Positions 1 through 59,538 of a DNA stretch of 59,538 nucleotides are shown here, one piece after another (within the stretch, counting starts at the first letter, position 1; every line of letters begins with the position of its first letter). Source of the DNA: a virus; the IMG/VR virus record IMGVR_UViG_3300028888_000014, positions 1 to 59,538 of that record, one strand, 5' to 3'. The notes beneath the pieces are model-generated. The model saw only the letters and a program-made list of their open reading frames with translations. It did no database searches and was not told the DNA's origin. Position numbers and translations under genes: made by a program.

Positions 1-127
1 ATAAAATCACTGCGCCAAAATCGCGCCAAAGTCTAAACGTCCTTTTGTTGATCGAAAGAAAATGAAAGGATAAAAAAAATGTCGCGTCCGTTTATCGACT
101 TCAAACCCGCACAATATGTTGAGACTA
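1..127. repeat. Left copy of the exact 127-bp terminal overlap
   Basis: Identical by direct comparison to 59412-59538; includes the first 49 nt of the integrase ORF. Confidence 0.95.
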
Positions 128-1200
128 AGACTGATAACTATGTCTCCTATTATGCAAAGAACCCTATGACCGACCGCTTGGAGCGCAAGCGTGTCCGTGT
201 CAATCACATTCACTCAAAGTCCGAACGTCGCAAGTTCGGCCGCCTTCTGGCCTGCGAGATCAACAGCCGTCTCTACAACGGGTGGAACCCATTCGTTGAC
301 GAGCTCAAAGGCCGTGGCTGCAGAACCATCGCCGCCGCTCTGGTCGAGTTCCTGAAGGAAAAGGAGAGATCCTTGAGGCCTGATTCCATGAGGTCCTACC
401 GTTCCTTGTGTGGTATCTTCCGTCTGTGGTGCGATTCGCAGGCACTTTCTGACAAGTTCTGCTTCTCCTTCGACAAGCCCCATGCGTCACGTTTCATGCG
501 TGACACGGATTCCGGCGGTCGCTTGTCCCCTAAAACCTACAACAACTATCTTCGCTTCTTCAGCACCCTTTTCCTTTGGATGGCTAACAAGGGATATGTT
601 TCCGGAAATCCTTTCGACGGTATTGAGCGGAAACGGGTTGACACGAAGATCAGGACAATCATTCCTCCTGCCGACCGCAAACGCATCGTCAATTATTATA
701 TGGATATCGGCCTCCCCGGTTTCGTCACTGTGATGGACCTGTGTTACCGCCTGCTCATCCGACCCAAGGAAATCCTCATGCTCCGCATCCGTGACCTTGA
801 CTTTGACAACGGCCTAATCGTCATCCCGCCTTCGGTCGCCAAGAACCACCATGGCCGCGTGGTGGCCGTACCTGAAGACCTGATGGCGAAGTTCCAGTCT
901 TTGAGGAATAGCAATTCCGATTATCTGATTTTCTCTGAGCATTACGAACCAGGCACAAAATTGCTCACTACACGTGACACGGGGCGTACATGGTCGCAGA
1001 TGCGCGAGGAGCTCGGGCTGCCGAAGTCCTATCAGTTCTACTCTCTCAAAGACACTGGCATCACGGAGATGCTGGATGCCGGTGTTCCGGCCAAGCTGGT
1101 CAAGGAACTTGCGGACCACCATTCGCTTGAAATGACAGAAAAGTATATGCACAAGTCCAATGCCAAAAAGATTCTCTCTTACAACCACTTGCGGCTTTAA
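79..1200 (+). CDS. int: Tyrosine recombinase / phage integrase
   Basis: 373 aa. C-terminal catalytic region LLIRPKEILMLRIRDLD ... ADHHSLEMTEKYMH has the conserved Arg, the H-x-x-R-like segment and the Tyr nucleophile pattern. An N-terminal SAM-like region is present. Confidence 0.9.
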   Translation: MSRPFIDFKPAQYVETKTDNYVSYYAKNPMTDRLERKRVRVNHIHSKSERRKFGRLLACEINSRLYNGWNPFVDELKGRGCRTIAAALVEFLKEKERSLRPDSMRSYRSLCGIFRLWCDSQALSDKFCFSFDKPHASRFMRDTDSGGRLSPKTYNNYLRFFSTLFLWMANKGYVSGNPFDGIERKRVDTKIRTIIPPADRKRIVNYYMDIGLPGFVTVMDLCYRLLIRPKEILMLRIRDLDFDNGLIVIPPSVAKNHHGRVVAVPEDLMAKFQSLRNSNSDYLIFSEHYEPGTKLLTTRDTGRTWSQMREELGLPKSYQFYSLKDTGITEMLDAGVPAKLVKELADHHSLEMTEKYMHKSNAKKILSYNHLRL

Positions 1201-3560
1201 TACACTTTCACCGCCTCGACCTGGCACAGCACCGTGTCATCGCGGTCGTTCTCGATCTGGATGGTGATTCTCTTGGGCACGCTTTTCACGTTGCGCACGA
1301 TCAGGAAGCGGGTTTGCCGCTGCGGGGCGAGCTCTGACGGGCGCAGGAGGTCCTCCACCTGCTGCAGCATGTTCGCGGGGAGCCTGAACTTGTAGGTCAC
1401 CGTCTTGTGGCCGAGCAGCTCCAGTACCGGCCTGACGTACTTTTCGCCGAGGCTGTTCGCGCCCTTGGCGGTGAGGGAGAACCCGTCAGCCCACACGGGC
1501 AGCATCACCTCGCTCTTGAGGTAGGTCAGCGGCTCCTCGCTGGTAGGCTGCCATTCGCGCCGGCGGAAGCCCCGGTACTGGGTGAGGATGATGTCGGATG
1601 GTTTCTCGGAGGCGTTGTAGAGGTCGCTGCAGATCGTGAAGTTGGCCACGGCGAGCTGCGGCGCGTCGCCGGTGGCGGTGTCGATGCCGGGCCGGCGGCG
1701 GCTCAGGCCGAAGATCCGCTGGTGCGGGATCTTTACGGCGGGCTCGCGCCTTTCCTCCTTTCCCTCGCCGACCTCCAGCCGGTCTGGGTTGCCGCTGTGC
1801 TCCTCCCAGCTCTCTGTCCAGTTGTCCGCAGCGCTTTCCTGCACGGCGGCCCGGTAGAGGGTGTTGGTCTTGCGGCGCAGCACCAGGTGCTCATGGCAGG
1901 CGTAGGCGTCGGGGAGTCTCATGTCCACGTCGGGCAGGCGCAGGTCCTCGCTGTATCCCTCGTCGGTGAGCGGGGTGAGGCGGAAGGTGCGCATGGTCTC
2001 CTCCCCCTCGGCCACCTCGGTCTCGCGGGTCAGCTCATAGGCGGTCAGGTCAAGGCTGTGCGCGTGGCGCAGCATGGCGTAGGGCACCAGCTCGGCCAGG
2101 CCGGTCTTCGCGCTCACGAACCAGCACAGCCCCATGGTTTCGAGCAGTGTCTTCAGGAACGATGCGTTGGAGACGTCGGGCAGCAGCTCTGGGATGCGGA
2201 AGGCGCGGCGGAAGATGTTGAAGCCGGTCAGCACCGTGTCGCGGCCGACCTGGTGCAGCACGACCTCCCATTTCAGGTTCACCGCCTGATAGATGTAACG
2301 TGTCCCCCACGGCTTTTTGCAGAACATGACGAGACGTATGCCGCTTGCCGACAGCACGTCGTTGATGTAGAGTTTTACGCTTTTCGTCCTGTTGTCGCAT
2401 TTCCACATCGCCAGGGTGTTGGTCTCGTCCAGCGTGATCAGATCCGTGTTTTCAGAATATATGGCCATTCGGAATCCGAAAGAATTGATTTCCGCTTTCT
2501 GCCGGCTGCTGGCGTTTGTGCTCCAGTGGTTCAGTACATCCTGTCTGTCTTTGGCCGTGTGCAACGGCGTGAGGGCGACTTCCCACCAGCCGGTCTGCAG
2601 CAGTTGCAGGTCGCCGTCTGCGGTGACATGGATGCCTGTCTCGGAATCCTCCGAATCCAGCATGTAGTGGACGTCTCCGTCCTGGCCATGGAGAACGTTG
2701 TAGGTCTCCGTCCTGAAGGTGCTGTCCTCGCCCCCGTACTGCGCCATGGTGCCGTCGAGCGACTTCTGCGACTGCAGGTAGGTGTCGTTGAAGTCCTCGC
2801 CAAGGTGGTTCACGAAGGTGTAGCCCGCGTTGCGGCACCAGATTTCCAGGATCCTTGCCAGACGGATCTGCGGGCAGAAGGCCAGCTGGTTGATCTCGGT
2901 GTACTGCGTGGTGACCGGGCTCCCGTCCGCGTCCGTTCCGTCTTCTTTTTCCAGTTCGAACCATCGGTTGGCGGTCTGTGAGAAGGCGCGGCCTGTGCTT
3001 TCGATGAGTTCGCCGGCGGGGTTGTGGAAAAGGCTGTTGACGATTTTCGTTCGGGCGTGGCCTCTCCAAAAGCCCCAGTTTTCGTTGTCGGACCCGTAGC
3101 CCTCGTCGTTGAGGAAAGGGGCGAACTTGATGTCGGGGTCGTCCTTGGCGGCAGCAAGGAACCTCGCCCAAGCCGCCGTGTGGGTCTCCCGCGTCTGGGA
3201 GATGATGATTTGAGGGTCCGCGTCCTCGGTGAGGCTGCGGTCGGCGAAGCCGTCCGGATAGGGGTTGAGCACGAGTGCGGCGGTGACGGTCTCGGGGGTG
3301 TTTTTCTGCACCACGAGGGTTCCGTTCCAGGCGAGGCCGCCGGAGGCCGTCACTGTGCAGGGCAGGCGGCGGGAGCCTTCGCATTGCGGGATGTGGGCGA
3401 AGCCCAACGCGGCCTCGTTGCCCTGCACGGGCAGGGAGAAGGCGAAGGTGACGTCGCCTTCGATGTCGGGTGCGGCGAACAGCGCGTTGTTGAGCTCCAC
3501 GGTCAGCGCGGTGCCCCGCCGCAGGGAGAGTGTGTGACCGTTGACTTGGATCTTGATCAT
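1197..3560 (-). CDS. Large distal tail / virion-associated protein (787 aa, function unknown)
   Basis: ATG start. It is the last gene of late operon 2, has the same high GC as the core structural genes and follows the fibre array. Confidence 0.55.
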   Translation of the reverse strand: MIKIQVNGHTLSLRRGTALTVELNNALFAAPDIEGDVTFAFSLPVQGNEAALGFAHIPQCEGSRRLPCTVTASGGLAWNGTLVVQKNTPETVTAALVLNPYPDGFADRSLTEDADPQIIISQTRETHTAAWARFLAAAKDDPDIKFAPFLNDEGYGSDNENWGFWRGHARTKIVNSLFHNPAGELIESTGRAFSQTANRWFELEKEDGTDADGSPVTTQYTEINQLAFCPQIRLARILEIWCRNAGYTFVNHLGEDFNDTYLQSQKSLDGTMAQYGGEDSTFRTETYNVLHGQDGDVHYMLDSEDSETGIHVTADGDLQLLQTGWWEVALTPLHTAKDRQDVLNHWSTNASSRQKAEINSFGFRMAIYSENTDLITLDETNTLAMWKCDNRTKSVKLYINDVLSASGIRLVMFCKKPWGTRYIYQAVNLKWEVVLHQVGRDTVLTGFNIFRRAFRIPELLPDVSNASFLKTLLETMGLCWFVSAKTGLAELVPYAMLRHAHSLDLTAYELTRETEVAEGEETMRTFRLTPLTDEGYSEDLRLPDVDMRLPDAYACHEHLVLRRKTNTLYRAAVQESAADNWTESWEEHSGNPDRLEVGEGKEERREPAVKIPHQRIFGLSRRRPGIDTATGDAPQLAVANFTICSDLYNASEKPSDIILTQYRGFRRREWQPTSEEPLTYLKSEVMLPVWADGFSLTAKGANSLGEKYVRPVLELLGHKTVTYKFRLPANMLQQVEDLLRPSELAPQRQTRFLIVRNVKSVPKRITIQIENDRDDTVLCQVEAVKVY

Positions 3561-3563
3561 GGC

Positions 3564-4214
3564 TTATGCGTATAAAAATGTTCCTGTGCCCTGATTGTAA
3601 AATGTATTCTTCGACACATAATCATACATGCACGGTACTCCTTGTGAATCCTGAACAGGAACAAAATAACCGACAAGTTTGTTAATGTCTTTGCGTCTAA
3701 ACTTTACATAATAAATTCTCCAAGACGAACGTGTAATGGCACCGTTTCCTTCAACTCCGGCAAACAGCAAAATTTTATTTGTCAATCCTTGTGCTGTTAT
3801 ATCGGGGATGGTTCCTTTTACTTCACCATTACAAATAATTTGGTTGTAATCATTATTATATATTACAACATTTATTTTTGTTAAATCCGTCAATTGTAGT
3901 CTTATAGGAGTGTTTGATTTTGTAACCGAACAAAGATAATTACTAGCAGAAGCATCATCTCTATCATGAATATGTGATGAAATATAATATCTGTTATTGT
4001 TTGCATTCCAACAACCTCCAACCAATTGTAATTTATAGGTAGGTTGGGACACTTGGCACTCCTTAAACTTTATTTCTGTTTCTAATTTATAAGTATCTAT
4101 CCCCGTGTTAATATATTGTCCTGTGCTACCTGAGGGATTGCCGTTACTTTCAAGATAGTTCAACAGCGTATAACCAGCTGGTATTGTGCCTTGTTGATAG
4201 TGATTTCTTCTCAT
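3564..4214 (-). CDS. Jelly-roll-type receptor-binding-like protein (216 aa), low-GC cassette member 3
   Basis: Starts MRR with an ATGA overlap onto the upstream gene. Motifs LLNYLESNG..STGQYINTGI and C-terminal GVPCMYDYVSKNTFYNQGTGTF recall prophage fibre-tip proteins. The gene is AT-rich. Confidence 0.5.
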   Translation of the reverse strand: MRRNHYQQGTIPAGYTLLNYLESNGNPSGSTGQYINTGIDTYKLETEIKFKECQVSQPTYKLQLVGGCWNANNNRYYISSHIHDRDDASASNYLCSVTKSNTPIRLQLTDLTKINVVIYNNDYNQIICNGEVKGTIPDITAQGLTNKILLFAGVEGNGAITRSSWRIYYVKFRRKDINKLVGYFVPVQDSQGVPCMYDYVSKNTFYNQGTGTFLYA

Positions 4215-4846
4215 ATCGCTGCTATTTGTTCGTCAGTAAGTTCAACGTTATATGTTCTTAAGTTTCTTATGTAACCTTTGAACCTCCCTGTGCTGCTGTT
4301 CTCTATTCTTCCAATGCAAAGATAACGCAATCGTCTGTTAGACGGAATACATATCGTTCCATGGTTTCTATGTTCTCCGTTTATGAAAAGGTCAGAGGTG
4401 TTTTGCGAGAGATTCTGTCGAATTGTAATTCTATAGTGTTTGTTCACTGTAAACGGGACTTCCGCCAAAGACAAGGCTGTATAAGTGCTTGATGCGCTAT
4501 AAATGCTACAATTGAGGTCTTGTCCCCAGTCTGGAGCATAGAAAACATTTATTGCGCCAGCATTCTCGAACAGCATTCTAACGCCTCGATACACCCCCGA
4601 TGCATAAAAGACGGGGAACATATATTCAAAGTCAACAACCGCAAACTCACTGTTAGGAACCTGCAATGATTGTTGAAATCCTGCTACCGAGCCGTTGAAG
4701 AATGCGCCATCGGCATTGAATCCAGCACAGCTCCCGCTCAAGGTTCCCCAGTCCCCAGTCACATCTGTCGCATTTGCCGTTAACGGGAAGAAGTGTGATG
4801 GTTCAGGCACGGACGGCTCTATGGTTTGATTAAATCCTCTTCTCAT
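4211..4846 (-). CDS. LamG / concanavalin-A-like lectin-domain protein (211 aa), cassette member 2
   Basis: C-terminal GYIRNLRTYNVELTDEQIAAI matches the LamG-type signature. Starts MRR, has an ATGA overlap and is AT-rich. Confidence 0.6.
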   Translation of the reverse strand: MRRGFNQTIEPSVPEPSHFFPLTANATDVTGDWGTLSGSCAGFNADGAFFNGSVAGFQQSLQVPNSEFAVVDFEYMFPVFYASGVYRGVRMLFENAGAINVFYAPDWGQDLNCSIYSASSTYTALSLAEVPFTVNKHYRITIRQNLSQNTSDLFINGEHRNHGTICIPSNRRLRYLCIGRIENSSTGRFKGYIRNLRTYNVELTDEQIAAI

Positions 4847-5505
4847 AGTTGTGCTAATTCATTTTCACTAAGTGCTCTATTATAAATACGAATATCTTTC
4901 AAGTAAACCTTATAATTCGTATCATTACTATCCCGTTTTGGGTTAAGCGAAACACGTTGTTTCATTATTGGTGTCCAATTCTGTGGGTCTATTACACTTC
5001 CTAATGATAAATTATTTTCACCAAATACATAATGTACACCAGCATCATCAATATAATAGGCTGAATACTCAGGAGCCATCGTGGCTGACTTAGTAGCAAC
5101 AAAGGCGCGTTTTTTCCGAAGCCCTCTAGTCGTATTGCTCTCATTTCTTATACATGCAACGCTTGGACGCCATGAGGTAGTGTCCGAATACCCACCTATG
5201 ACTACGTAGGGTGGATAGTTATAGTATCCATAGGTTTGTGCTTGACAGTCAACGAATATGGTGTATCTACACTGTTGGATTCCTGCTGCATACAAGTTTA
5301 CTGGGAAGTAAATTTCATTGGTTTTTGACATTTTGCTGAACAAATACATTCCCCTTTCACTATCAAACACAACTCCACCTGAAGGATATACCAATGATTG
5401 TCCGCTCACATGGTCTGTAAGATCCCCCTCGGTCAACGGTGCAAAAAATACAAGATTTTCTTCGAACGGTATTCCGCCGCCTTTTTCAAATGTTTCTCGT
5501 CTCAT
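4843..5505 (-). CDS. LamG / concanavalin-A-like lectin-domain protein (220 aa from ATG 5505), cassette member 1
   Basis: C-terminal YLKDIRIYNRALSENELAQL is the classic LamG_3-type motif. The ATG at 5505 gives an MRR start like its two neighbours. The track start at 5718 is GTG and overlaps the upstream gene by 50 nt. Confidence 0.6.
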   Translation of the reverse strand: MRRETFEKGGGIPFEENLVFFAPLTEGDLTDHVSGQSLVYPSGGVVFDSERGMYLFSKMSKTNEIYFPVNLYAAGIQQCRYTIFVDCQAQTYGYYNYPPYVVIGGYSDTTSWRPSVACIRNESNTTRGLRKKRAFVATKSATMAPEYSAYYIDDAGVHYVFGENNLSLGSVIDPQNWTPIMKQRVSLNPKRDSNDTNYKVYLKDIRIYNRALSENELAQL

Positions 5506-5668
5506 TGCCAGCCTCCTTTCGCCCAGCTGCTGTCCGCCGTCCATTGCGTTGTGATTGAAGGCGCAGAAACCCGCGAGATTGTCATGTACCTGCACAGCGA
5601 CAATGCCGCGCAGAGCAGCAATGCCGCGATGACCGCCTTTATAAGTTTCGAGTCTATACTTAATGTCC

Positions 5669-6172
5669 TCATAACTCCTCCATTGCTTGGTTATACACTT
5701 CGTCAATCGCTTCAACACTTGATGCCGCCTCTATCCTCGGCTTGTATGTGACGTACACGGTCATTGCCTTCTTGCTCTGCGTGCGGAAGTCGCTGACAAC
5801 ACGCTGTGCTTCGGCCAAGCCGTAATAACAGCTTGCCGTGGGATTCTCAACTTTATCGATAGCCACAGCGAATTCCAATGTCGTGACCGTCACCGATAAG
5901 TAACATACCTCTTTGAGTTCTTTGACTTTCTCTGCTGCGTATTCTTGCACATCGGGAGTCGGCGGCACGTATGGCGGCACAAGCTCGCAGTCCCATACCT
6001 CCATCACGGTCGCGTCTGGGTGTTCGAGATAAAACTCACGCTGTTCAGTTGTCATCTCTTGATAGATGCGATTGAGGATCGTGTTGACGTGCACGGCTGT
6101 GACTTTTATCTCATACGGCTTTCCGAGCCGCATTTTGAAATAGTAATATTGTTCGTTGTCTCTCAATGCCAT
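5669..6172 (-). CDS. Hypothetical protein (167 aa)
   Basis: ATG start, ordinary amino-acid composition, located in the tail module. Confidence 0.55.
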   Translation of the reverse strand: MALRDNEQYYYFKMRLGKPYEIKVTAVHVNTILNRIYQEMTTEQREFYLEHPDATVMEVWDCELVPPYVPPTPDVQEYAAEKVKELKEVCYLSVTVTTLEFAVAIDKVENPTASCYYGLAEAQRVVSDFRTQSKKAMTVYVTYKPRIEAASSVEAIDEVYNQAMEEL

Positions 6173-6174
6173 TT

Positions 6175-6291
6175 TTAATACTTTTTTGATTTAATCCACA
6201 GAACCAGAATCACGATTCCGATAATTACCAAGCCAACGCCCGCAAAGACGGCGTCCCATAACAGTTCTTGCTTTAAAAATTCAATATCCAT
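6175..6291 (-). CDS. Small single-pass membrane protein (38 aa), not in the ORF track
   Basis: My own translation is MDIEFLKQELLWDAVFAGVGLVIIGIVILVLWIKSKKY, a hydrophobic core followed by a KSKK tail. It fills the 6173-6296 gap. Confidence 0.35.
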   Translation of the reverse strand: MDIEFLKQELLWDAVFAGVGLVIIGIVILVLWIKSKKY

Positions 6292-6296
6292 AGTCG

Positions 6297-7391
6297 TTAC
6301 AATGATAAATCGTTACGTGTTGTTATGAAAGCGCCGTCGCTGTTGACTAATATACCTATTTCGCATACGCCGCCGGCGGGGACGGTGATGCCGTCGGATG
6401 GCACATAGACGTTGGACACGGAGGTACCTGATAGCGTCACCGCGCTGATGGTCACGTCAACCTCTGAAGAGCCGCTGTTGCGGATCCAGAGGTAGTTGTC
6501 GGAGAGGTTGTTGCAGGCGATGGACAGTCCGAGGTCGGCGGAGACGGTGAGCATCCGAGTGCATCGTTGCCCGGCTGCGAAGGTGACGGTGGCCGCGCTT
6601 CCGCTGATTGTGGTGTTGGCGGTGTGGGTGAAGTCGTGTTCGGTGAGACCGCCTGTGCCGGAACCTTTAGACACCCATTCCAGTCCGTCGGCTTCGGAGT
6701 TGACGGCCAGCACCTTCCCCGCGTTGCCCGTTTTGGACGGTAATTGCTCGTTGGGGACTTCGATGTTGAGGGTCTTGTCGGCGGAGGCATTGGAGGTGAA
6801 GGTGCCGATGGTTGTGCCGTTGAGCTGGATGGTCAGTGTGGCGTTGTTCACCGTGGGAATCGTCGGCTTGTTGCGCAGGTCGTTGTAGCTGCCCGTCTTG
6901 GCGACCCTGTGCAGGTTCACCGCCCCCGCCAGTGACTCCGAGCTCTGCGCCGTCTGCGCCGTCGAATTGTCGGTGTTTAGCGTGCCGGCAGAAGAGGAAC
7001 CTGTTGGTATAAGTTCTCCTGACATAGACCACCTGTCTTCAAGAGTGGAATGATTGTATTGTCCATAAGCATGAGTAATAAATAAATCACTGGAGAACAG
7101 TTGTGTAGTAACACTTTGAAAAACTACAAGTCCTGATTCTACGTGTATGCATGGTATCACATCCATATCTGAACCTTCATAAGGCTGACATTTCAGAAGC
7201 ACTATCTTTCCTTCACGAAACAAGGTGTAGATGTCGCTTATTGACTTGTCACAACTATATACCCCGTTGGTGTCTTTTGTCAGTTCCACAATCACTATGT
7301 CTGGAATATCCTCCTGCACCGCCTGCAGGGCGGTGTTGATCCAGCCCAACACCCGTTCGATGTTGCCCTTTGTGATCAATTTGTCATTCAT
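6297..7391 (-). CDS. Tail fibre protein (364 aa)
   Basis: Fibre motifs VAKTGSYNDLRNKPTIPT and GNAGKVLAVNSEADGLEWV, the latter shared with the 496-aa fibre. The N-terminal third is AT-rich and the remainder GC-rich. Confidence 0.65.
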   Translation of the reverse strand: MNDKLITKGNIERVLGWINTALQAVQEDIPDIVIVELTKDTNGVYSCDKSISDIYTLFREGKIVLLKCQPYEGSDMDVIPCIHVESGLVVFQSVTTQLFSSDLFITHAYGQYNHSTLEDRWSMSGELIPTGSSSAGTLNTDNSTAQTAQSSESLAGAVNLHRVAKTGSYNDLRNKPTIPTVNNATLTIQLNGTTIGTFTSNASADKTLNIEVPNEQLPSKTGNAGKVLAVNSEADGLEWVSKGSGTGGLTEHDFTHTANTTISGSAATVTFAAGQRCTRMLTVSADLGLSIACNNLSDNYLWIRNSGSSEVDVTISAVTLSGTSVSNVYVPSDGITVPAGGVCEIGILVNSDGAFITTRNDLSL

Positions 7392-7403
7392 GGCGCGTTC
7401 TCC

Positions 7404-8123
7404 TTAGTTGCTGCCGAACATGTCGTCGATCTCGCTGTTGGAGGCGATCACCAGCTTGGCCGTCTTGCCGGTGATGGCGGCCGTGTTGTTGGCGTCGGTG
7501 CCGCCCGTGGCCACCTCGATGGACTCTATGACGTTCACCTGTGCGCCCTCGGCGATGCCCGCCAGCTTGTTCTTCTCCACCGTGGTGTAGTCGTTCGAGG
7601 AGAGCCCCTTGCCAGTCTCCTTGTCCACCTTGTCCGCCAGGGCGGTGGTCATGGCGGCGGTCGTCGCGTAGCCGTAGTCCTCCACGATGGCGCGGATCTG
7701 CGCCTCGGTCTTGAAGCCGCTCACCGCGCTGGCGATGGCCGCGTTCATCTGCTCGGTGGTGCTGTAGCCCGACAGGTCGATGTCGGTGCTGCCGATCTTC
7801 TCCCACTTGTAGGCGTTGCCGTCCTGGATGGTGATGTACTCGTCCTTCACGTTCTGCCCGGCACCGCCCGTGGCGGGCACCAGCCAGATCTTGTGCATGG
7901 TGCTTTCCGCCGCCGTGGGCAGCGCGGCCACGCTCTCGTAGGTGAACTGCTTCACGGCGTTCACGAGCGCCTCGATCTCCGTCTTGGTGTAGGTCTCGGT
8001 CTTCAGGTAGTAGTTGGTCAGGTCGTCCACCGCCTTGGTGACGAACCCCTTGACGGCTATGGCCGCTTCCATCTTGGTCTTGAACTCAGCCATGTTGCTG
8101 AGCGTGATGAGTTTTTCTTTCAT
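7404..8123 (-). CDS. Tail fibre protein (239 aa)
   Basis: KGLSSNDYTTVEKNKLAGI is a common phage fibre repeat. The N-terminus MKEKLIT resembles MNDKLIT of the next fibre. Confidence 0.65.
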   Translation of the reverse strand: MKEKLITLSNMAEFKTKMEAAIAVKGFVTKAVDDLTNYYLKTETYTKTEIEALVNAVKQFTYESVAALPTAAESTMHKIWLVPATGGAGQNVKDEYITIQDGNAYKWEKIGSTDIDLSGYSTTEQMNAAIASAVSGFKTEAQIRAIVEDYGYATTAAMTTALADKVDKETGKGLSSNDYTTVEKNKLAGIAEGAQVNVIESIEVATGGTDANNTAAITGKTAKLVIASNSEIDDMFGSN

Positions 8124-8168
8124 TCTTGTCTTTTTTTTGGTGATAAGTGGTTATTCGTTTTTCGGCCG

Positions 8169-8399
8169 TCACTCGAACAGGCCGTCTATGTCCTCGTCGG
8201 TGGCGGTCTCGAAGTCTGCGTCCCACGATTCGCCGGGGTCGCCCTTGTCGCCCTTGTCGCCTTTCTCGCCCTTGTCGCCCTTGAACCAGCGGCCGAAGGT
8301 GATGACGGCCGACTGTTCCGCATCGGCGGCGCAGGCGGCGTCGATGCGCAGCGAGGGCTGCGAGAGGGTGATGGTCATTGTCAGTTCGCTGATGGTCAT
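8169..8399 (-). CDS. Small collagen-like repeat protein (76 aa)
   Basis: Contains G-X-Y run GDKGEKGDKGDKGDPG, encoded by a 9-bp tandem repeat. Confidence 0.55.
   Translation of the reverse strand: MTISELTMTITLSQPSLRIDAACAADAEQSAVITFGRWFKGDKGEKGDKGDKGDPGESWDADFETATDEDIDGLFE
8238..8282. repeat. 9-bp tandem repeat x5 (gtcgccctt) encoding the collagen-like G-X-Y run
   Basis: Read directly from the sequence; in frame with CDS 8169-8399. Confidence 0.8.
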
Positions 8400-8408
8400 G
8401 TCGTCGGT

Positions 8409-8762
8409 CTATTTGAGGTTTTGGGTTGCGGGTTCGCCCTCCCAGACCACGGGCACGGCGTTCTCGCCGGCGTTGACGTACGAGAGGTCGGGCGCGTAGA
8501 TGACGGCGCGGAGGGTGGTGGCGCCGGCCATGCGGCGGGTCATCTCGTGGGGGAGTTCGACGAGCAGGTGGGTGTCGTCGATGCGCGTGAGGCCGCCTCC
8601 TGAGATGGTGGCCTCGAAGAGGGGCTTGCCGTATGGCGAGTAGAAGCCGATCTTCACGTCCATGCCCTCGGGCAGCGGCTCGGAGATCTTCACCGCCACG
8701 GTGGTGCTGTCGCCCTGCCGCTGGGTGATGGGGTGTGGTCTGTCGGGGTGGTTCGGGTTCAT
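8409..8762 (-). CDS. Hypothetical tail-module protein (117 aa)
   Basis: ATG start, plausible composition, lies between fibre genes. Confidence 0.5.
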   Translation of the reverse strand: MNPNHPDRPHPITQRQGDSTTVAVKISEPLPEGMDVKIGFYSPYGKPLFEATISGGGLTRIDDTHLLVELPHEMTRRMAGATTLRAVIYAPDLSYVNAGENAVPVVWEGEPATQNLK

Positions 8763-8794
8763 ATCGTTGGTTTTGTACGTTTCTGATTTATTGA

Positions 8795-10285
8795 TTACTC
8801 GGTTGTTATGTTTTTTGCGACATCAAGATTGTTTTCCACCTCTAAAAGCACGCGCGAGCTTATTCTAATGAACATTACTTTAGCTGCTTTTCCTGCGGGT
8901 ATTGTAAATTGGTCTGAACCTTGTTTGTAATAAAAAATCGCATTGGTTGTTACTATAGAGACATCAACGTCAGATGAGTTGTCTGAATTGTCATATATTA
9001 TAAATGCGTCGTACTGTGTTATTACAACCGACAAAGAAGTAGAGGTGATTCCATTGGCGATGTGTAGAACTCTAAAAGTTCTGTAACTAAGCACGAACGT
9101 GTCACTGATTGAGGCTTCTTGCACAGCAGAAAAAAAGCGTCCAGTGTACAAATTGCCCGGTCCAAGTATAGTTGTGTTGTCAACTTTCTTAATATTCGTC
9201 CCGGAGACTAAAGATTGTTGTAGAGAAACACTCCCTTTAGTCCATTTGTCGGTGCTTTGGTTGTATGTTATATATGTGGTCTGTTCACCAAGTGTTCTGG
9301 AGAACGTCAATATATTATTTGAGACAAGAACATAGATGTCGTTTTCTGACACACACAGCACACATTTACCATCATTAGATGCTTGCGAAATTTCCGAAGT
9401 GGTCTTGTCCATAGTGCCGGTTGTCGCATCATAGCTGCACACAAAGACCTCTTCCGTTCCTGCGCTCTGCGCCACCCATTCCAGCCCGTTGGCCGTGTTG
9501 TTCACCGCCAGCACCTTGCCGGCATTGTTGGCGACGGGCGGCAATGCGTCTTGCTTGGAGGCGATGTCCGCGCCCCAGCGGTCGATGGCGATGATGATTG
9601 CATATCCACCAAAGCAATGTAGCAACACATTGTCTCCGGCCTTGATGACGCCAGCCGCTTGCAATCCGTAGTTTCTGTAGGCTATGCCGTAAGTTTTTGA
9701 GCCGATGGATACTATGGTCCCTGTAACGCTTGCAGCAACGTCGTTGTAGAACCTGAGAAACAGGAGGTCTCCGTCCTCGAACGTCGTATTGGCCGGCGTG
9801 TTTATCGTCACGACCTTCGTAGTTTCAGACGATGCGGAATAGGTCACCCCTTGGAAGATCTTCCCTGACAGCGACAAATCGCCGCTCCCCAGCAGCGAGT
9901 TCCCGTTCACGGTCTTGATGTTCGTGCCGCTGACCAGTTTTTTTTGCAAAGGGTAATAGCCTTCTCTCCATTGGAAATTGACACCATCTGAACTGTAGTA
10001 TTGTAACCAATGCATTTCATTTGTGCCGTTTCCAGTCTCATCGTGTACGAGAGATGCAAAGACACATGTGCCAGGGTATCCGTTTCCCGCTTCGGAATAT
10101 GCGGTCAAAATGAGACGGATCCCATAGTACTGGCACATCACGGTTTTCCCTTTCATCGCGTCAGACACTATCGGATCCGCTGTCACCACGTTGCCATTAG
10201 CGTCTTTCATCGTTTCTCCCGCGAAGGTATATACCACGATGTCCCGCAGCGTGTCGACATCCCTTATCTGTCCGAGGTCGATCAT
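8795..10285 (-). CDS. Tail fibre / receptor-binding protein (496 aa)
   Basis: Shares NNAGKVLAVNNTANGLEWV with the 364-aa fibre and has repeated LVSGTNIKTVNG / LVSGTNIKKVDN segments. The C-terminal half (8795 to about 9400) is AT-rich. Confidence 0.6.
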   Translation of the reverse strand: MIDLGQIRDVDTLRDIVVYTFAGETMKDANGNVVTADPIVSDAMKGKTVMCQYYGIRLILTAYSEAGNGYPGTCVFASLVHDETGNGTNEMHWLQYYSSDGVNFQWREGYYPLQKKLVSGTNIKTVNGNSLLGSGDLSLSGKIFQGVTYSASSETTKVVTINTPANTTFEDGDLLFLRFYNDVAASVTGTIVSIGSKTYGIAYRNYGLQAAGVIKAGDNVLLHCFGGYAIIIAIDRWGADIASKQDALPPVANNAGKVLAVNNTANGLEWVAQSAGTEEVFVCSYDATTGTMDKTTSEISQASNDGKCVLCVSENDIYVLVSNNILTFSRTLGEQTTYITYNQSTDKWTKGSVSLQQSLVSGTNIKKVDNTTILGPGNLYTGRFFSAVQEASISDTFVLSYRTFRVLHIANGITSTSLSVVITQYDAFIIYDNSDNSSDVDVSIVTTNAIFYYKQGSDQFTIPAGKAAKVMFIRISSRVLLEVENNLDVAKNITTE

Positions 10286-10288
10286 GGC

Positions 10289-11152
10289 TTACTGGTTCCT
10301 CTTGATGAAACAACAGGTCACGGTGTCGCCGCTCTTGGGCACGTAGGCGGAGGAGGTGAGGGTGAACACGCCGTAGCCGCTGGCGTCGATGGCGTAGGTG
10401 TAGTCGTTGGCGGCACCCTCGGCCTGTTTCACGCCGTTGATGTAGAGCGCGGCGTTCGCGCCCTGGGCGGTGTGTACGAAGCCTGGGGTCTTGAACACCT
10501 TGTTCGTGCCGTTGACGCTCCCCGTGCAGGCGGCCTCGAACAGTACCATCGCGCCGTAGTCGATTTGCGCGGGCAACGTGGCACGGATCAGTGTGATGAC
10601 CCCGGTGTCGGGGTTGATGCTCATGCCGCTCACGTACTGCCCGCTCACCGCCTCGCCATTCTGCACTTCGGGGAACTTCACGGTGAGCTTGAGCTTGGCG
10701 GGCGTGTCGTTGGTGGCGGGCACCTTTTCGATGGTCAGCGCGTCGCCGTTGCCGCTGGTCAGGGCGGCGAGGAGCTGGTCCACGAGGTTGGCCTGCGTCA
10801 CCGCGCCGGTGATGTTCACTTGCACGATGGTCCAGTGGTTGGCGTTGGTGATGCTGGCGGCGTCGGTGTTGGCGATGAGGGTGTCCCCTTCCTCAAGGGT
10901 CACGCCCGTGGGGGCGGTGCCGTTGCCGTTATACACATAGACGTAGCCTTTCTTGATGGTGTCGGAGGCCGCCTCCGTCCATGCGCCCCGGTAGAGCATC
11001 GCGCCGGTGACGCCCACGACCTCGCTCCGGATCTTGGCGGCGATGGCCGCTGCTGACGCGGTGAGGGTGTCGCTGTCCCAGTTCACTCCCCCGAGTGCCT
11101 GGATGAACTCGTCGATGCGTATCTGGTCTTTTCTGATGAGGGTTTTTGCCAT
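10289..11152 (-). CDS. Tail-associated structural protein (287 aa)
   Basis: Ala/Gly/Thr-rich, beta-type composition, within the fibre array. Confidence 0.5.
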   Translation of the reverse strand: MAKTLIRKDQIRIDEFIQALGGVNWDSDTLTASAAAIAAKIRSEVVGVTGAMLYRGAWTEAASDTIKKGYVYVYNGNGTAPTGVTLEEGDTLIANTDAASITNANHWTIVQVNITGAVTQANLVDQLLAALTSGNGDALTIEKVPATNDTPAKLKLTVKFPEVQNGEAVSGQYVSGMSINPDTGVITLIRATLPAQIDYGAMVLFEAACTGSVNGTNKVFKTPGFVHTAQGANAALYINGVKQAEGAANDYTYAIDASGYGVFTLTSSAYVPKSGDTVTCCFIKRNQ

Positions 11153-11170
11153 AGTTTCGGGTGTTTTCGG

Positions 11171-11893
11171 TTATGCTTTTCTGAATGCCATGGGAACGGC
11201 CATGAACACGAGCACGTCAGAGGGTGCGGGGATGTGCGTGAGCATGACGATGCCGTAGGAGCCGTCTTCGGCGTAGTCCTTGCCGGCGGTGAGGAGCTGC
11301 CCGTTGAAGTAGAGGACGGAGGTGCCGGTGGTGAAGCCGTCCTCCACGGCGAACTTGACGTTGCTGTCGTTCTGCTCGCCGGTGATGGGCAAGACCTTGA
11401 GCTGTGCCTTGACGGCCTCGCTCAGGACGGTCCGGGTGGCGTTGTTGGTGACTTCGGTGTAGGAGGCGACGTTGCGCAGGGTGGTCTTGCGGATGCCTGA
11501 CGGGGTGACGACGGGCACGAGGGCGTCTCCGGGGAAGGTGTCGGTGGCCTCGATGTTGGAGAGGTCCTTGTCGAGCTTGTTGTCCAGGGCGGCGGTGACG
11601 GCGGCCTGGGCGGCGGCCACGGCTTCTTCGTACTTGCCGTTAGTGTAGTCCTTGGTGGCCCAGGCGGCCTCGTAGGTGTCGTAGTCGGCGGTGTCAATGA
11701 TGCGGATGTCGAGCTGCCGGGTCGTCAGCATTCCGTTGAGTTCCACACCGTTGAGGGTGGGTTTGTCCGCGAGGTCCCTGTAGGAGATTCCCTGCCCGCT
11801 GACCCCTTCGTTGTGTGCGGCCACGAGCGCGTTGATGGTGTCGATGAGCTGCTGCCCGGTGCAGCCGATCTGCAAAAGTTCTATCTGTGCCAT
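11171..11893 (-). CDS. Tail fibre-like protein (240 aa)
   Basis: YRDLADKPTLNGVEL fibre-type motif; located in the fibre array. Confidence 0.55.
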   Translation of the reverse strand: MAQIELLQIGCTGQQLIDTINALVAAHNEGVSGQGISYRDLADKPTLNGVELNGMLTTRQLDIRIIDTADYDTYEAAWATKDYTNGKYEEAVAAAQAAVTAALDNKLDKDLSNIEATDTFPGDALVPVVTPSGIRKTTLRNVASYTEVTNNATRTVLSEAVKAQLKVLPITGEQNDSNVKFAVEDGFTTGTSVLYFNGQLLTAGKDYAEDGSYGIVMLTHIPAPSDVLVFMAVPMAFRKA

Positions 11894-11919
11894 GGTGTCT
11901 TACTGGGTTGGTTAGGGGG

Positions 11920-12327
11920 TTATCTGGTTGTGGGATTGGTGGCCGGGGTGGGATTTCTGCAGAGGGGCTTGCGTTCCTCGTTCATGAGCTTGTCGATGAT
12001 TTCGCCGCGCAGGTAGGAGGCGATCTGCTCCGACTCCTGCTTCACGGCGCCGGCGTGCACCGCGCCCATCACGGCGGAGTTCTTCACGGTGAGCGTCACC
12101 TCGCAGTGCACGCTCTCCATGGCTGCCAGCTTCTGGATGAGTTCCTGCTGGCTGATGACCTGCTGCTGCAGGACGGCGATCTGCGTGTCGGCCTCCCTGA
12201 GCTGTTTGCCCTTGCTGCCGGCCGAGATCCACCCGACGGCCAGCGCGATGACGGCGACGACGACCGGGATCCATTTGAGGTACTTCTTGGCGAATGTCCA
12301 GATTTTTCTTATGAAGGCTATCATCAT
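11920..12327 (-). CDS. N-terminal transmembrane plus coiled-coil protein (135 aa)
   Basis: Hydrophobic WIPVVVAVIALAVGWI is followed by Q/L-rich heptad-like sequence. Same architecture as CDS 35896-36330. Confidence 0.5.
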   Translation of the reverse strand: MMIAFIRKIWTFAKKYLKWIPVVVAVIALAVGWISAGSKGKQLREADTQIAVLQQQVISQQELIQKLAAMESVHCEVTLTVKNSAVMGAVHAGAVKQESEQIASYLRGEIIDKLMNEERKPLCRNPTPATNPTTR

Positions 12328-13935: not shown

Positions 13936-16900
13936 TCACAGTCGCGCCAGTTCCCTCACTTCCCGTTCCTGATCGTCGAACTCCAACTGTATCTTCCGGC
14001 TGATGTAGGCGCGGCGGTTGTTGGGGTCGCGCAGGTAGTCGTTCATCTGTCTGAGTTCCTTGAGCAGCTCGCCGTTGTCGTTCTGGTAGTAGTTGTTGGT
14101 GGTTGTCTGGTTTGACGGTGCAAAAGTACCGCTTCCCGCGCGAACGGCTTGGGACACGTTTTTCAGGTCGGGCTGCGGGATGGATATTCCGGCGAGGGCC
14201 TTGCGGTCGCCGCGCTGGTACTCGTCGAGGGCCGCGATGATGTCTGCGGTTTCGCGGTCCCGCAGCAGGCGGTTACTGGCCACCCATTCGTCGCCCTGCT
14301 CGCCCATCACAGCGTACTGCCTGCCGTGGATGTAGCCGCCCTTGTAGTACGGGTTGGGCTGGGAGGCGATGACTGCGAGTTGTGTTGCCTGTATCGCTGC
14401 CGCTATTGCGGATGCCGCGCTTTTGATAATGAGTCCGCCCGGCTCGTTGGCGAAGACGCTGGAGATGGTGAGCGCCAGGTTCACGGCCCCCTGTATGAGG
14501 TTCGCCGTGCGTTCCCGCTCGAAGGCGTCATGCTTCAGCTTCTTCTCCTTCTTCTCCTTCTCTTTCTGCATCCGCTCCATCTGCGCGTCATAGCGCTTCT
14601 GTGAGATGAGCCCGCTGTCGAGTTGCCGTTTCAGGACGGCCGATTTGGAATCATACATTTCCTCGTAGCGTTGCAGCTCCGCGTCCGCTTGGTTCTGCAT
14701 CACGCTGTCGATGGCCGACCACAGCTCGAACGCGTTGTCTGCGAATGTCCTGAGCCGGTCTGTCATCTTCGACAGGTTGTCCTCCCAGTTCTTGTCCCAC
14801 GCAGCCCAGTCTTCTTCTGTGATGCCGAACAGCGTCGCCCATGTGTCTTTGCCGAACGCCGTGTCGTATTTGGTCTGTATGTCGCTCTTCCGGCCTTTCA
14901 GAAACGCCAGTGTCTTCTCTATTTCCTTTAGTCGTTCGTCGTTCTCGCCCCCGTCGTTGTGCTCCTGCAGGTATTGTTGCGCGACCTCAAGTGTCAGGAT
15001 CTGGTCCTCGAGGGTCTTCATCGCCTCGCGGTACTGGCGTGTCACCGAGTCCGACATGGCGGTGACGATTTCGCGGGAGCGCTCGGCGGTCAGGGCCTGC
15101 ATCTCGGCGAGCTTCGCCTTGTCAAGCTCTTTTATCGCCTCGGTCACTTTGTCCAGTTTGCGCTGGTCCTCGTCGTCGAACTTGAGGCCGAGCAGTGTCA
15201 GCAGGTCTTGGGCGTTGCGCGGCTTCTGTTTCATCGCCTCTTCCCATTTCTCCCTTGTCAGTCCTATTTTCCCGAACAGCTCCGCGTTGTCTTCGAATGC
15301 CTGCTCAACCACATCCGTGTCGGACGACCAGTCGAACATGTTCCCTATTGTGAGTGAAGCGTCTTTCCTTTCGTTCAGCTTGTTCCGTTCCTCTTCCGCT
15401 TTCTGTCCCAGCTTGCCGAAGTCGTTTTCCATCTCCTTCATGTCCGTCTCCAGCTGCGTCTGGTATTTGCGCTGCTGCTTGAGGCGGAATTTGTTGAGCT
15501 TTTCTGTCACCGATGAGAGGTTGTCATCGATCTTCTTGAGCCTTTTCGCGCGTTCCTCGTCCTCGATCCGCGCTATCTCGTCCCACTTCTCCTGTTCCAG
15601 GCGTGCGCTTTCCGCTGCGGCTCTCTCTTCAAAGCCCTTGTATGTCTCGTTGAACGATTCCACTTCCTTGATGATGGCGTTGTAGGTGTTGATCACGGTT
15701 TCCTTGGCGGAGGATATGCCGAGGGATTCCGCCGAGGCTTTCTCGTTGAGCTTCGCGGTCTTCTTCATGAGGTCCGCCCAGCGTTCCTCCGGGGTCTTGC
15801 CGGATTCCTTGCCGCTGGTTACCGGGCTTGACGGGTCGTAGTCGTCGGTTTCGGCGTTGTAGCTTCCGCCGCCTCCATCATGTGATGCATTTCGGATCCT
15901 TGCTGTCACCATTGCTGCGGCATTGGTGAACATTTCAGCGACTTCCTCTCCCATTGTTGCGACATCATTCCCGAGAAGTTTTATTCCTTCGTTTTCCAAT
16001 TTTGTCAATGCAGCCTTTTGGGTTTTGTCGTCTGCTTGGTCTATCGTCTTCCCGTCAAATAGTTTGTCTATGATCATGTTGACTATTTCGCCTGTCATCT
16101 CGGATCTTTTTTTGTAAGCAAGGGCTTCTGCGGCCGCAGCTGAAGCGTTTGTCGCGGTTGGGGCGTAATCTTCAGTTCCGAATGCTTGGAAACCTGCCTT
16201 TTTCACGTTGAGCTTCCGGATGTTTTCGCTTGCCTTGATCATCTTGCTGGTTTCCGATTGGAATTCGCTCTCGTATTTTCTGAGTTCTTTGAGGTCTGCC
16301 GCGAGTTTTTCCGCTCCACTTTTCAGATTCACGCCGTATCGAGCCGCTTCTGTCTCTATCTTTTCGTTGAATTCCGAGAACTTCTCCCTGTATCTGTCCA
16401 TGCTTTCAGACAGGCTGACGAGAATGTTCAACTCTCCTTTCATTCCTTTGCCTGCCACGAATGTTTCGCGTGTTCCGAGAAGAGCGTTGATGTCTCTCGT
16501 GTATCCCATGCTGCTTAAAAGGGTTTTTATTTCCTCGTTTCCGCTGCCTGCTCTTAGCGCTTCGGCTATTTTTGATGCGTTTCGCGCGGCTTCGGCGCGG
16601 TCTTTTTCGTCAGGGTTTTTCACCCATTTGAGTAATATTTTTTCAAATCCGTTTTGGATTTCCGTAAGGTTCTGACCGAAGTGTTTCCCTTCGCCCATGT
16701 ATTCGTCGGTGAGTTTGTCTTTCGCTTTCTGGAACCCTTTTGCCGCTGCTTCGTCTTCTATCGCCTTGATCACCGCTCTGTGCGCCGCTTCGATGTTCCA
16801 AAGCTGGCCTTCTTCGTTGGTCAGGTTTGCAAGGTATTTTCCGTATTTCTCGTTGAGCGTCTTCATTATTTCCGCTCTCTGTTCCTCGGTGGTGTTAACA

Positions 16901-59370: not shown

Positions 59371-59413
59371 AACCCCGCAACGCGCTGTTTTACAAAACGT
59401 TGCGGGGTTTTAT
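59371..59413 (+). terminator. Rho-independent terminator between the repressor operon and int
   Basis: 12-bp stem aaccccgcaacg/cgttgcggggtt followed by tttta. Confidence 0.6.
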
Positions 59414-59538
59414 AAAATCACTGCGCCAAAATCGCGCCAAAGTCTAAACGTCCTTTTGTTGATCGAAAGAAAATGAAAGGATAAAAAAAATGTCGCGTCC
59501 GTTTATCGACTTCAAACCCGCACAATATGTTGAGACTA
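59412..59538. repeat. Right copy of the exact 127-bp terminal overlap (includes a duplicated int start at 59490)
   Basis: Identical to 1-127. A length of 127 is typical of an assembler k-mer overlap on a circular contig. Confidence 0.95.

Follow-up and report, generated by a model that had tools for sequence, protein, structure and literature searches.

The 59,538-nucleotide stretch of DNA analysed here (IMG/VR virus record IMGVR_UViG_3300028888_000014, positions 1 to 59,538; hereafter the window) carries, towards the end of a tail operon, a low-GC island of three short genes on the minus strand (3564-5505), which we call cassettes A, B and C. Comparison with other loci indicates that the island is a composite, horizontally acquired element in which C plus B and A are separately derived. 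The slot which it occupies is old and its contents are variable: it is a standing hypervariable array in related Bacteroidales prophages whose content is swapped. B and C are of the LamG/ConA-like lectin fold, and A is assigned by its homologues to a distinct, large domain family not covered by Pfam, PHROGs or NCBIfam. On balance we lean towards an account in which a temperate phage of rumen Bacteroidales carries exchangeable, tail-associated carbohydrate-binding adhesins in a hypervariable slot.

Composition of the low-GC island

Cassette A (3564-4214, minus strand; 216 amino acids, beginning MRRNHY), cassette B (4211-4846, minus; 211 amino acids, MRRGFN) and cassette C (4843-5505, minus; 220 amino acids from the ATG at 5505, MRRETF) are chained in such a way that every start codon overlaps the previous stop as ATGA. 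An earlier note, made from the sequence alone, had reported these open reading frames (ORFs) with their MRR starts and ATGA chain, all of which we find on the minus strand; its counts of guanine plus cytosine (GC) are exact (40.0% for 3601-3660 and 65.0% for 3301-3360), and the C-terminal motifs that it quoted are present. The island has a GC content of 39.3% against 63.1% in p787, the adjoining 787-amino-acid gene, and GC at third codon positions (GC3) is 0.27 in A, 0.43 in B and 0.31 in C against 0.86-0.95 in p787, p239, p117, p287, p240 and p516. The lowest GC of the island, 34%, is that of A. The genome is heterogeneous overall (standard deviation of GC 7.4%), with two more low-GC patches in its tail module, at 6900-7350 (N-terminal part of p364) and 8795-9450 (C-terminal half of p496); the dip at the island is nevertheless real because few 650-nucleotide windows of the genome reach the GC of the cassettes (0.17% are at or below that of A, 2.3% that of C and 11% that of B). 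Its edges track the ORFs, the low-GC sequence starting within the first ~25 codons of C and ending at the stop codon of A. A promoter and terminator scan around the cassettes made neither a terminator nor a promoter of their own evident, and the sigma-70-like matches reflect AT-richness, Bacteroidales promoters being different. The cassettes have no signal peptide or transmembrane segment.

Origin of the cassettes

The locus that bears most directly on the history of the island is L008 (loci compared with the window carry L numbers), a close backbone relative whose homologue of the companion gene p167 is 72% identical and in which six cassettes lie between p167 and the B homologue. Positions 5469-4166 of the window, which cover the body of C, B in full and the initial 48 nucleotides of A, are 97.9% nucleotide-identical to L008 5202-6505, B being 98.6% identical to L008 5825-6460. 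Upstream, positions 6653-5392 (the end of p364, s38, p167, s56 and the start of C) are 84% nucleotide-identical to L008 1388-2652. The two matches meet in a crossover zone in the conserved 5' codons of C (5392-5469, minus strand), with L008 cassette 1 matched upstream and cassette 5 downstream: identity at 5470-5505 is 0.97 to cassette 1 and 0.47 to cassette 5, and at 5300-5391 it is 0.45 and 0.98 respectively. In a three-way alignment the window follows cassette 1 to about 5430 and cassette 5 from about 5395, which places the crossover in the PFEENLVFFAPLTEGDLTDHVSG codons. The array of the window is by this alignment an L008-like array short of four cassettes, unless L008 is the expanded form.

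The body of A (4177-3566) is 90% nucleotide-identical to a gene in L002 and L003, contigs (up to 154 kb) of an unrelated phage of 34% GC with thymidine kinase, a poly(A) polymerase-family gene, Thg1 and adenylosuccinate synthase; the own genes of L002 have the same GC3 (0.25). The 5' end of A (first ~16 codons; 4166-4214, minus strand) is identical to a truncated 22-codon remnant of an A start in L008, and A switches to L002-like sequence at GCTGGTTATAC (P-A-G-Y-T). Homology with L002 extends as far as the stop codon of A, which precedes the start of p787 by three bases. Both junctions fall in conserved 5' codons in three-way alignments, and it is there that cassettes are replaced by homologous recombination. 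The earlier note had proposed that the cassette was imported: the foreign composition, the 98% and 90% nucleotide identity to other backbones and the mapped junctions agree with import, but of C+B and of A and not of a single unit.

The arrangement of L008 deserves separate mention. When its positions 6460-8554 are set against window 4166-9931, its array is seen to converge on a gene resembling the N-terminal part of p496, an LRR_5 gene and the start of p117, all three of which are on the opposite strand; the layout looks like window segment 4166-8689 inverted, with a terminator-like hairpin and the 22-codon A remnant at the junction. This convergent arrangement is either a real rearrangement or an assembly chimera. 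No inverted repeats matching it are found in the window.

The cassette slot in related phages

Arrays with p167 upstream and a p787 homologue downstream hold one cassette in L014, two in L026 and L027, three in L013 and three in L016, and in L017 five cassettes lie between the two genes with one more upstream of p167. L005 and L021 have four cassettes followed by an unrelated 620-amino-acid gene, four or five are present in L024, L018 and L025 and five in L033, and in L007, a 62-kb PolB phage of 38% GC, ~14 consecutive cassettes lie behind a 1347-amino-acid Phage_fiber_2 protein. The crAss-like loci L009-L011 and L012, identified by Pfam CrAss_Ring, crAss_MUZ and crAss_CARG1, carry p167 and then one LamG cassette, between fibre genes and the ring, muzzle and cargo genes; s56 is found in L009 only, where the cassette is directly followed by a GH108 lysin. 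In eight of the nine lineages recovered with cassette queries, the cassettes are directly preceded by homologues of p167 and s56, which in L007 are found inside the array. The module formed by the fibre C-terminal domain, p167, s56 and the cassettes is common to several phage lineages including crAss-like phages.

Cassette GC3 is mostly below that of the flanks (0.44-0.53 against 0.67-0.79 in L016 and 0.29-0.38 against 0.64-0.76 in L036), whereas in the crAss-like L012 (30% GC) the relation is inverse, 0.40-0.54 in the module and 0.10-0.24 in its surroundings. Together these opposite contrasts indicate that the module travels between phages of different composition. The earlier note had pictured a recent import. 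The slot and its low GC are common to all relatives, which does not fit a one-off insertion, but the cassette contents do differ between relatives. Rather than the same cassette alleles and GC in all of them, which the note had held to speak against its reading, the relatives examined carry different cassettes.

Several local features of these loci are worth recording. In L012 the stretch 9480-12114, which takes in the p167-like gene, the LamG cassette and two genes after it, has a GC3 of 0.37-0.54 between flanks of 0.10-0.24, mirroring the dip of the window; the contig was binned in a 'Bacilli' metagenome-assembled genome (MAG), probably a binning error. Between the s56-like ORF and the functional cassette of L009 (about 9780-10000) there is a short dead-end ORF starting with MRREHTIEFKTANYITGL followed by a stop, apparently what is left of a cassette that was deleted. 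In several phages (L018 6008-6529, L024 5111-6132 and L009 10667-11173) one finds, within a few genes after the array, an endolysin of GH108 type together with a small Cys-rich ORF resembling membrane proteins or lipoproteins; the cassette module thus often borders lysis genes.

Fold of cassettes B and C

B consists of a single LamG/ConA-like domain ending in GYIRNLRTYNVELTDEQIAAI and matches Pfam Laminin_G_3 (PF13385) over residues 86-209 at an E-value of 2.2e-8, scoring 34.8 bits where the cut-off is 27.6; nothing on record was identical to B in an exact-protein look-up. C is likewise a single LamG/ConA-like domain in which a conserved N-terminal PFEENLVFFAPLTEGDLTDHVSG and a C-terminal KDIRIYNRALSENELAQL frame a hypervariable centre, and family identity falls from 88% in residues 13-35 to 20% in the centre. 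Alone, C scores only 15 bits against PF13385, on its C-terminal 27 residues, but 13 of its 31 homologues carry that domain and the profile of the family reaches the sialic-acid-binding CBM40 of NanA (4c1w) at 3.8e-9, as well as the lectin-like Hc-N domain of clostridial neurotoxins (BoNT Hc). A confident AlphaFold2 (AF2) model of C (predicted local distance difference test, pLDDT, 86.6; predicted template-modelling score, pTM, 0.87) gives 108 Foldseek matches in the PDB at E<=1e-3 with probability 1.00, led by the lectin-like Hc-N domain of TeNT and BoNT. Among its BFVD matches are phage proteins that carry annotations such as ConA-like, structural or minor tail, including two 'structural proteins' of phage CBB and one virion structural protein of S-PM2. 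The end motifs ..APL..D.SG.. and ..RIYNRAL...E...L, hallmarks of LamG domains, are present. The earlier note's LamG reading is borne out for these two cassettes, for B by its Pfam score and for C by the family profile and by AF2 and Foldseek. Phages have tail and structural proteins of the Laminin_G_3 family, and the present cassettes resemble them in that B passes the threshold and C matches by profile and structure. That domain is usually part of larger phage tail proteins, however, whereas here it forms stand-alone, tagged and tandemly arrayed genes, of which A is not detectably a member of the family.

Cassette A and its family

The domain of A runs from an N-terminal IPAGYTLLNYLESNG..YINTG to a C-terminal PCMYDYVSKNTFYNQGTGTFLYA and has 11 close homologues. 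A has no match in Pfam, PHROG or NCBIfam, and none of ten family members matches Pfam even at E<=10. When the A family is aligned with the LamG profile in hhalign only the seven-residue MRRE start, or tag, aligns, and with a deep profile of 250 A-type domain copies the probability of a match with LamG is 0.3%. The AF2 model is all-beta (pTM 0.75, pLDDT 68.5) and its best Foldseek matches are all ConA-like folds but weak, with E>=0.019 and template-modelling scores of about 0.4. Searches of PDB sequences with the A-type profile and with a four-domain A-type protein yielded nothing meaningful. The earlier note's three-gene LamG cassette accordingly holds for B and C; for A a LamG relationship is not detectable. 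We also rejected the possibility that A is a paralogue of B or C, pairwise BLAST and two profile-profile tests showing likeness in the tag only.

The A-type family takes in 12,898 representative proteins at E<=1e-3, of which 4,366 reach E<=1e-10. Many members have a length of 600-2500 amino acids and contain 4-11 tandem copies of a ~197-amino-acid unit bounded by ..EYIESTGTQYIDTG.. and ..LVRDYIPVLD..PCMYD.V...FYNQGTG.F.Y, and one joins two Laminin_G_3 domains with A-type units. What the earlier note had described as a 'fibre-tip motif' in A is instead the C-terminal hallmark of this very large unannotated family and corresponds to no known fibre-tip signature. The giant members (P0045-P0192; loci L029-L032) reach 2513 amino acids with 4-11 tandem units and have no Pfam or PHROG annotation. 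One is encoded in a gut phage between a 2299-amino-acid protein with no domain assignment and a lysis cassette of holin and Amidase_2 (endolysin); another adjoins a pectate-lyase-domain protein and SU10-adaptor genes.

The N-terminal tag

Among 58 cassette genes the start consensus is ttATGAGaAGAgAAcA, or M-[RK]-R-E-[H]. The Arg and Lys codons of this tag vary synonymously (AGA, AGG, CGA and CGG; AAA and AAG), and where starts do not overlap the preceding gene the motif is shifted one residue later (MPRREH, MSKREH), which together argue that the constraint acts at the level of the peptide. In the AF2 models residues 1-5 of C and 1-7 of A are disordered. The short basic tag tracks the phage and not the domain type: all five cassettes of L033 start with MSKRH or MSRRH, the A-type and LamG-type cassettes of L034 both start with MERRRLL, and both L036 cassettes with MERRRL(L/I). 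Identity over the first six residues is 0.63 between different types within one phage and 0.50 within the same type across phages (Mann-Whitney p 2e-5, the pairs being non-independent).

Other routes by which cassettes might be mobilized or diversified were considered. Integron-type gene cassettes were rejected, as the junctions lie in homologous coding sequence and the sole integrase is a phage-type tyrosine integrase; the 58 boundaries share only ttATGAGaAGAgAAcA, synonymously variable, with type-specific upstream sequences and no attC-like nucleotide site. An invertible segment or shufflon of the Mu G or P1 C type fared no better, there being no meaningful inverted repeats around the cassettes, which are all co-oriented. 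Nor is a target of a diversity-generating retroelement (DGR) supported: no reverse-transcriptase domain was found in the 30 largest ORFs, to which the scan applied, no template repeat was seen, and 3000-10500 has no direct repeat in which a cassette takes part.

Companion genes

The GC-rich stretch immediately upstream of C (5506-5718) had been taken in the earlier note for a native N-terminal adaptor fused through a GTG start, or else for untranslated sequence. Neither proposal survives, the stretch holding the 3' end of p167 and, in another frame, a 56-amino-acid ORF, s56 (5502-5672, minus strand), that encodes a conserved small transmembrane protein. A GTG-extended, 291-amino-acid version of C is rejected because the extension frame has stops in L005 and the overlapping s56 frame is conserved. 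The product of s56 reads MRTLSIDSKLIKAVIAALLLCAALSLC...QWTADSSWAKGGWQ, with one hydrophobic helix and a conserved C-terminal motif QWTADSSWAKGGW; the gene is ATGA-chained to both p167 and C, and its frame is kept as protein in L005, L008 and the crAss-like L009. Homologous ORFs occur within the same module in L005, L008, L009, L013, L014, L016, L017, L022, L025, L033, L034 and L036.

p167 (5669-6172, minus strand; 167 amino acids) is a conserved companion directly upstream of the cassettes. Its homologues are 72% identical in L005 and L008, 44% in the crAss-like L009, 38% in L007, where the gene sits upstream of the last cassette, and 30% in the crAss-like L012, and a profile search added 16 further loci; no match was obtained in Pfam, PHROG, NCBIfam or the PDB (for the PDB with both the single sequence and the profile). 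Between p167 and the fibre gene lies s38 (6175-6291, minus strand), a 38-amino-acid ORF with a hydrophobic helix (MDIEFLKQELLWDAVFAGVGLVIIGIVILVLWIKSKKY) for which blastp against the other loci found no homologue and whose status as a gene is uncertain.

The upstream edge of the shared module is the conserved C-terminal domain of p364 (6297-6653, minus strand; ~115-150 amino acids, ending in ...CEIGILVNSDGAFITTRNDLSL), which is matched at the nucleotide level in L005 as well as in L008. In 17 loci the protein before p167, of 136-1079 amino acids, has this same C-terminal domain, 35-78% identical to p364 residues ~247-364. p364, which matches a PHROG of virion structural protein and is called fibre-like, thereby reverses the usual fibre layout, in which the N-terminus is conserved and the tip variable. 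On the other side the array is bounded by p787 (1197-3560, minus strand; GC3 0.86), a conserved backbone gene whose homologues (775-824 amino acids) follow the arrays in L013, L014, L016, L017 and L026; p787 has no family match in Pfam, PHROG or NCBIfam and no PDB match with its profile. NCBIfam returned nothing for ten tail-region proteins, and IMG/VR scans with p787 and B as single proteins gave no match.

Genome, host and tail operon

The first 127 nucleotides of the window (1-127) are repeated identically and directly at 59412-59538, and contig L001 spans the junction; the window is on these grounds a circular or circularly assembled phage genome of ~59.4 kb and not an integrated prophage. 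It encodes a phage-type tyrosine integrase (79-1200), a PhageMin_Tail tape-measure protein of 1766 amino acids (13936-19236, minus strand), a ClpP-type prohead protease, a DUF5906 primase/helicase-like protein and a C5 methylase. The order of the minus-strand late operon is tape-measure, p516, p240, p287, p496, p117, p76, p239, p364, s38, p167, s56, C, B, A, p787, with p239 and p364 matching tail-fibre and virion-structural PHROGs. The cassettes thus come after the tape-measure gene and the genes that match tail-fibre PHROGs, in the tail module as the earlier note had placed them, and are followed by p787 and then the integrase gene, so that the array lies near the integrase end.

Bacteroidales, whose prophages that note had proposed for comparison, are the hosts to which the p167-profile search points, the relatives recovered being prophages on contigs of rumen Bacteroidales MAGs from yak, sheep and goat. 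Just past the p787 homologue, related prophages adjoin tRNA genes (L013 14350-14424, L014 11613-11687, L016 14467-14539 and L017 15481-15557; tRNA-Met in three of these loci and tRNA-Glu in one), an arrangement that agrees with integration into Bacteroidales genomes at tRNA targets; the window itself yielded no tRNA. A megablast of window 1-12000 against GenBank phages gave a sole match, a 42-nucleotide collagen repeat.

Discussion

In the account that we favour, the slot lies at the distal end of the tail-fibre operon and consists of the fibre C-terminal domain, p167, s56, tandem single-domain cassettes of ~200-220 amino acids and p787. It draws on a cassette pool common to crAss-like phages, the large 34%-GC phage, the 62-kb PolB phage and these prophages, a pool containing several LamG/ConA-like subtypes and the separate beta-rich A-type domain. 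Cassettes are gained, lost and replaced via homologous recombination in their conserved 5' codons, a step that the junctions demonstrate. One event would have contracted an L008-like array, so that C took its start from cassette 1 and its body from cassette 5 and was followed by B; in a second, separate event the body of A would have been replaced by an allele from a low-GC phage. This would explain why cassette GC lies far below that of the backbone. The cassette proteins would be made with the late tail genes through translational coupling and mounted on the fibre by the short, disordered basic tag (MRR...), which may fit the platform of the phage, that is, the fibre C-terminal domain and/or p167. 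There they would act as interchangeable carbohydrate-binding adhesins, the content of the array setting or broadening the range of surface glycans bound, for example capsules. A part as receptor-binding or host-range determinant is what we infer from their fold, position and variability.

A number of observations weigh against this account. That A, B and C are virion proteins or bind anything is a prediction, and the three proteins are small, with no recognisable trimeric fibre or anchor domain. The LamG fold also has structural roles in which nothing is bound, and support for the fold of A is weak (pLDDT 68.5, with Foldseek giving no match below E = 1e-3). The likeness of tags within a phage could stem from 5' gene conversion instead of docking, and an adhesin model does not account for the conserved membrane-type s56 inside the module. 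The closest relative of A, in L002, has the thymidine kinase and the poly(A) polymerase-family gene as its neighbours and not recognisable tail genes. Finally, no relatives in cultured or deposited phages came up when p167, C and A were compared by tblastn with 50,697 phage records.

Among the alternatives, the cassettes may be virion decoration proteins, lectins of a Hoc-like or whisker-like kind that bind mucus, plant fibre or host debris for niche retention and not for receptor choice, which we regard as unlikely but worth keeping in view. Large phages do have stand-alone ConA-like 'structural' proteins of ~220 amino acids, the model of C matching those of CBB and S-PM2; phage CBB has unexplained tail whiskers (PMC5259590), and in L005 a BACON domain is fused to a capsid protein. 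The cassettes are nevertheless always tied to the conserved C-terminal domain of the fibre gene and to the end of the tail operon and do not lie beside capsid genes, and such extreme turnover, together with the variable centres, is in keeping with an arms race against host surfaces.

We give little credence to a second alternative, that the cassettes are non-structural morons in an attachment-site (att)-proximal hot spot, acting with the transmembrane protein in superinfection exclusion, receptor masking or defence. The att-proximal ends of prophages are hot spots of accessory genes, and small membrane proteins or lipoproteins beside receptor-binding protein (RBP) genes, such as T5 Llp and Cor, act in receptor masking. 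The array does lie near the integrase end, its low GC and rapid turnover are moron-like, and the conserved s56 is, like Llp and Cor, a small membrane-type protein in a putative RBP locus. s56 has no homology to those proteins and no lipobox consensus, however, and its conservation across phages with different cassettes argues against receptor-specific masking. In crAss-like phages the module has fibre genes on one side and the endolysin, ring and muzzle genes on the other, the 20-kb loci examined being free of integrase genes, and in L007 it is beside the fibre gene; the cassettes, devoid of signal peptide and transmembrane segment, are ATGA-coupled to late genes with no promoter or terminator of their own evident. 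PADLOC likewise lends no support, A, B, s56, p167, p787 and s38 having no match and C one at chance level (E = 0.0077, 12.9 bits).

It is very improbable that the cassettes are fibre-specific assembly chaperones and not adhesins. They are small genes directly downstream of fibre genes, the classic position for Tfa- and gp38-type factors, but none of A, B, C and p167 has a Tfa or Caudo_TAP chaperone match in Pfam, PHROGs or NCBIfam, and B and C have the LamG lectin fold, which is one for binding; moreover, up to 14 cassettes lie behind one fibre gene, and the same domains are fused in multi-domain proteins of 600-2500 amino acids. Hardly tenable at all is the idea that the low GC is old and intrinsic to resident genes through amino-acid or codon selection and no signal of import, for although all relatives are lower in GC at the slot, it is contradicted by the 90% and 98% nucleotide identities to other backbones that end at gene or motif boundaries, by close relatives with different cassettes and by L012, where the module is GC-richer than its flanks.

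If the cassettes are adhesins, their closest functional analogue would be gp38 of T2 and T6, a small monomeric adhesin encoded right after the fibre gene and readily exchanged between phages, in which a conserved N-terminal part binds the conserved fibre tip and conserved motifs frame hypervariable segments of receptor specificity (PMC3157838; PMC12032242). The analogy is without sequence or fold relation, since gp38 has a polyglycine-rich domain where the cassettes have LamG/ConA-like and unannotated beta domains; A and C gave no tblastn match indicating gp38-type homology in 50,697 phage records, and no Pfam or PHROG adhesin was matched. Whereas gp38 is present once per phage, arrays here hold 1-14 cassettes, whose attachment to the fibre is putative. 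Branched multi-RBP systems of Klebsiella phages and Viunalike phages (PhiK64-1; TSP1-4 of CBA120) reportedly likewise encode tandem RBPs with short conserved N-terminal anchors on a shared platform and exchanged specificity parts. Those RBPs are large trimeric beta-helix depolymerases, in contrast to the non-enzymatic single lectin-fold domains of ~210 amino acids encountered here with a transmembrane protein and p167.

A further parallel is offered by the DGR-diversified C-type-lectin tail fibres of crAss-like and other gut phages (PMC12386605). These and the cassettes have a common problem in the variable surfaces of Bacteroidales, which is met in both by diversifying a lectin-type tail domain, but DGRs use reverse-transcriptase mutagenesis whereas here cassettes are exchanged and arrays expanded or contracted by recombination. 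It is already known that receptor-binding parts are exchanged as modules and that phage tails contain LamG domains. Literature searches on the motifs, on LamG in connection with crAss or tail fibres and on hypervariable fibres of rumen crAss phages returned no description of the module; not found described are the tagged stand-alone cassettes, arrays of 1-14 genes, the companions p167 and s56, the spread across crAss-like and unrelated Bacteroidales phages and the size of the A-type family.

Little is known of the host range of Bacteroidales phages from rumen and gut that have not been cultured, among them crAss-like phages, and the locus offers a compact marker of the probable site of specificity, recognisable by the fibre C-terminal domain, p167, the small transmembrane ORF and tagged cassettes. 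It is at the same time a mapped example of specificity modules moving between unrelated phages with arrays expanding and contracting, supplies parts relevant to engineering that can be tested (tag, platform and cassette), and flags the A-type domain as a very large family outside Pfam, PHROGs and NCBIfam. A broader proposal, which we put forward tentatively and think rather doubtful, is that of plug-and-play adhesins across phages: a platform of fibre C-terminal domain, p167 and perhaps s56 would take any cassette bearing the phage's own tag (M[RK]REH, MSKRH or MERRRLL), with lectin-fold and A-type domains traded across viral orders, Crassvirales included, in arrays of up to 14. Virions would then be multivalent or heterogeneous and keep pace with phase-variable capsules, and the A-type unit would be a major unrecognised receptor-binding domain of phages, present in ~12,900 representative proteins and often in 4-11 tandem copies. 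The surfaces of Bacteroides, with their capsules and S-layers, are phase-variable (for example PMC12548429), and one might speculate that such surfaces would make stacked, swappable lectins advantageous.

Other observations

Further variation is apparent in the tail module. p496 (8795-10285, minus strand) has a C-terminal half of low GC (0.39-0.41), the low-GC part being 8795-9450; in L008 its N-terminal part is 98.7% identical (window 9557-9931) and is followed by a stop and a separate 403-amino-acid LRR_5 gene, making p496 a second swap site within the same tail module as the cassettes. p76 (8169-8399, minus strand) encodes a small collagen-like protein (GDKGEKGDKGDKGD) with a 9-nucleotide repeat at 8221-8283, and L001, otherwise identical to the window, is without 27 nucleotides (8239-8265) of this gene, a polymorphism in repeat number between assemblies. 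The centre of the tape-measure gene (about 16000-17500) has a GC of ~0.47 against 0.59-0.61 at both ends, a contrast which suggests mosaicism inside that gene too.

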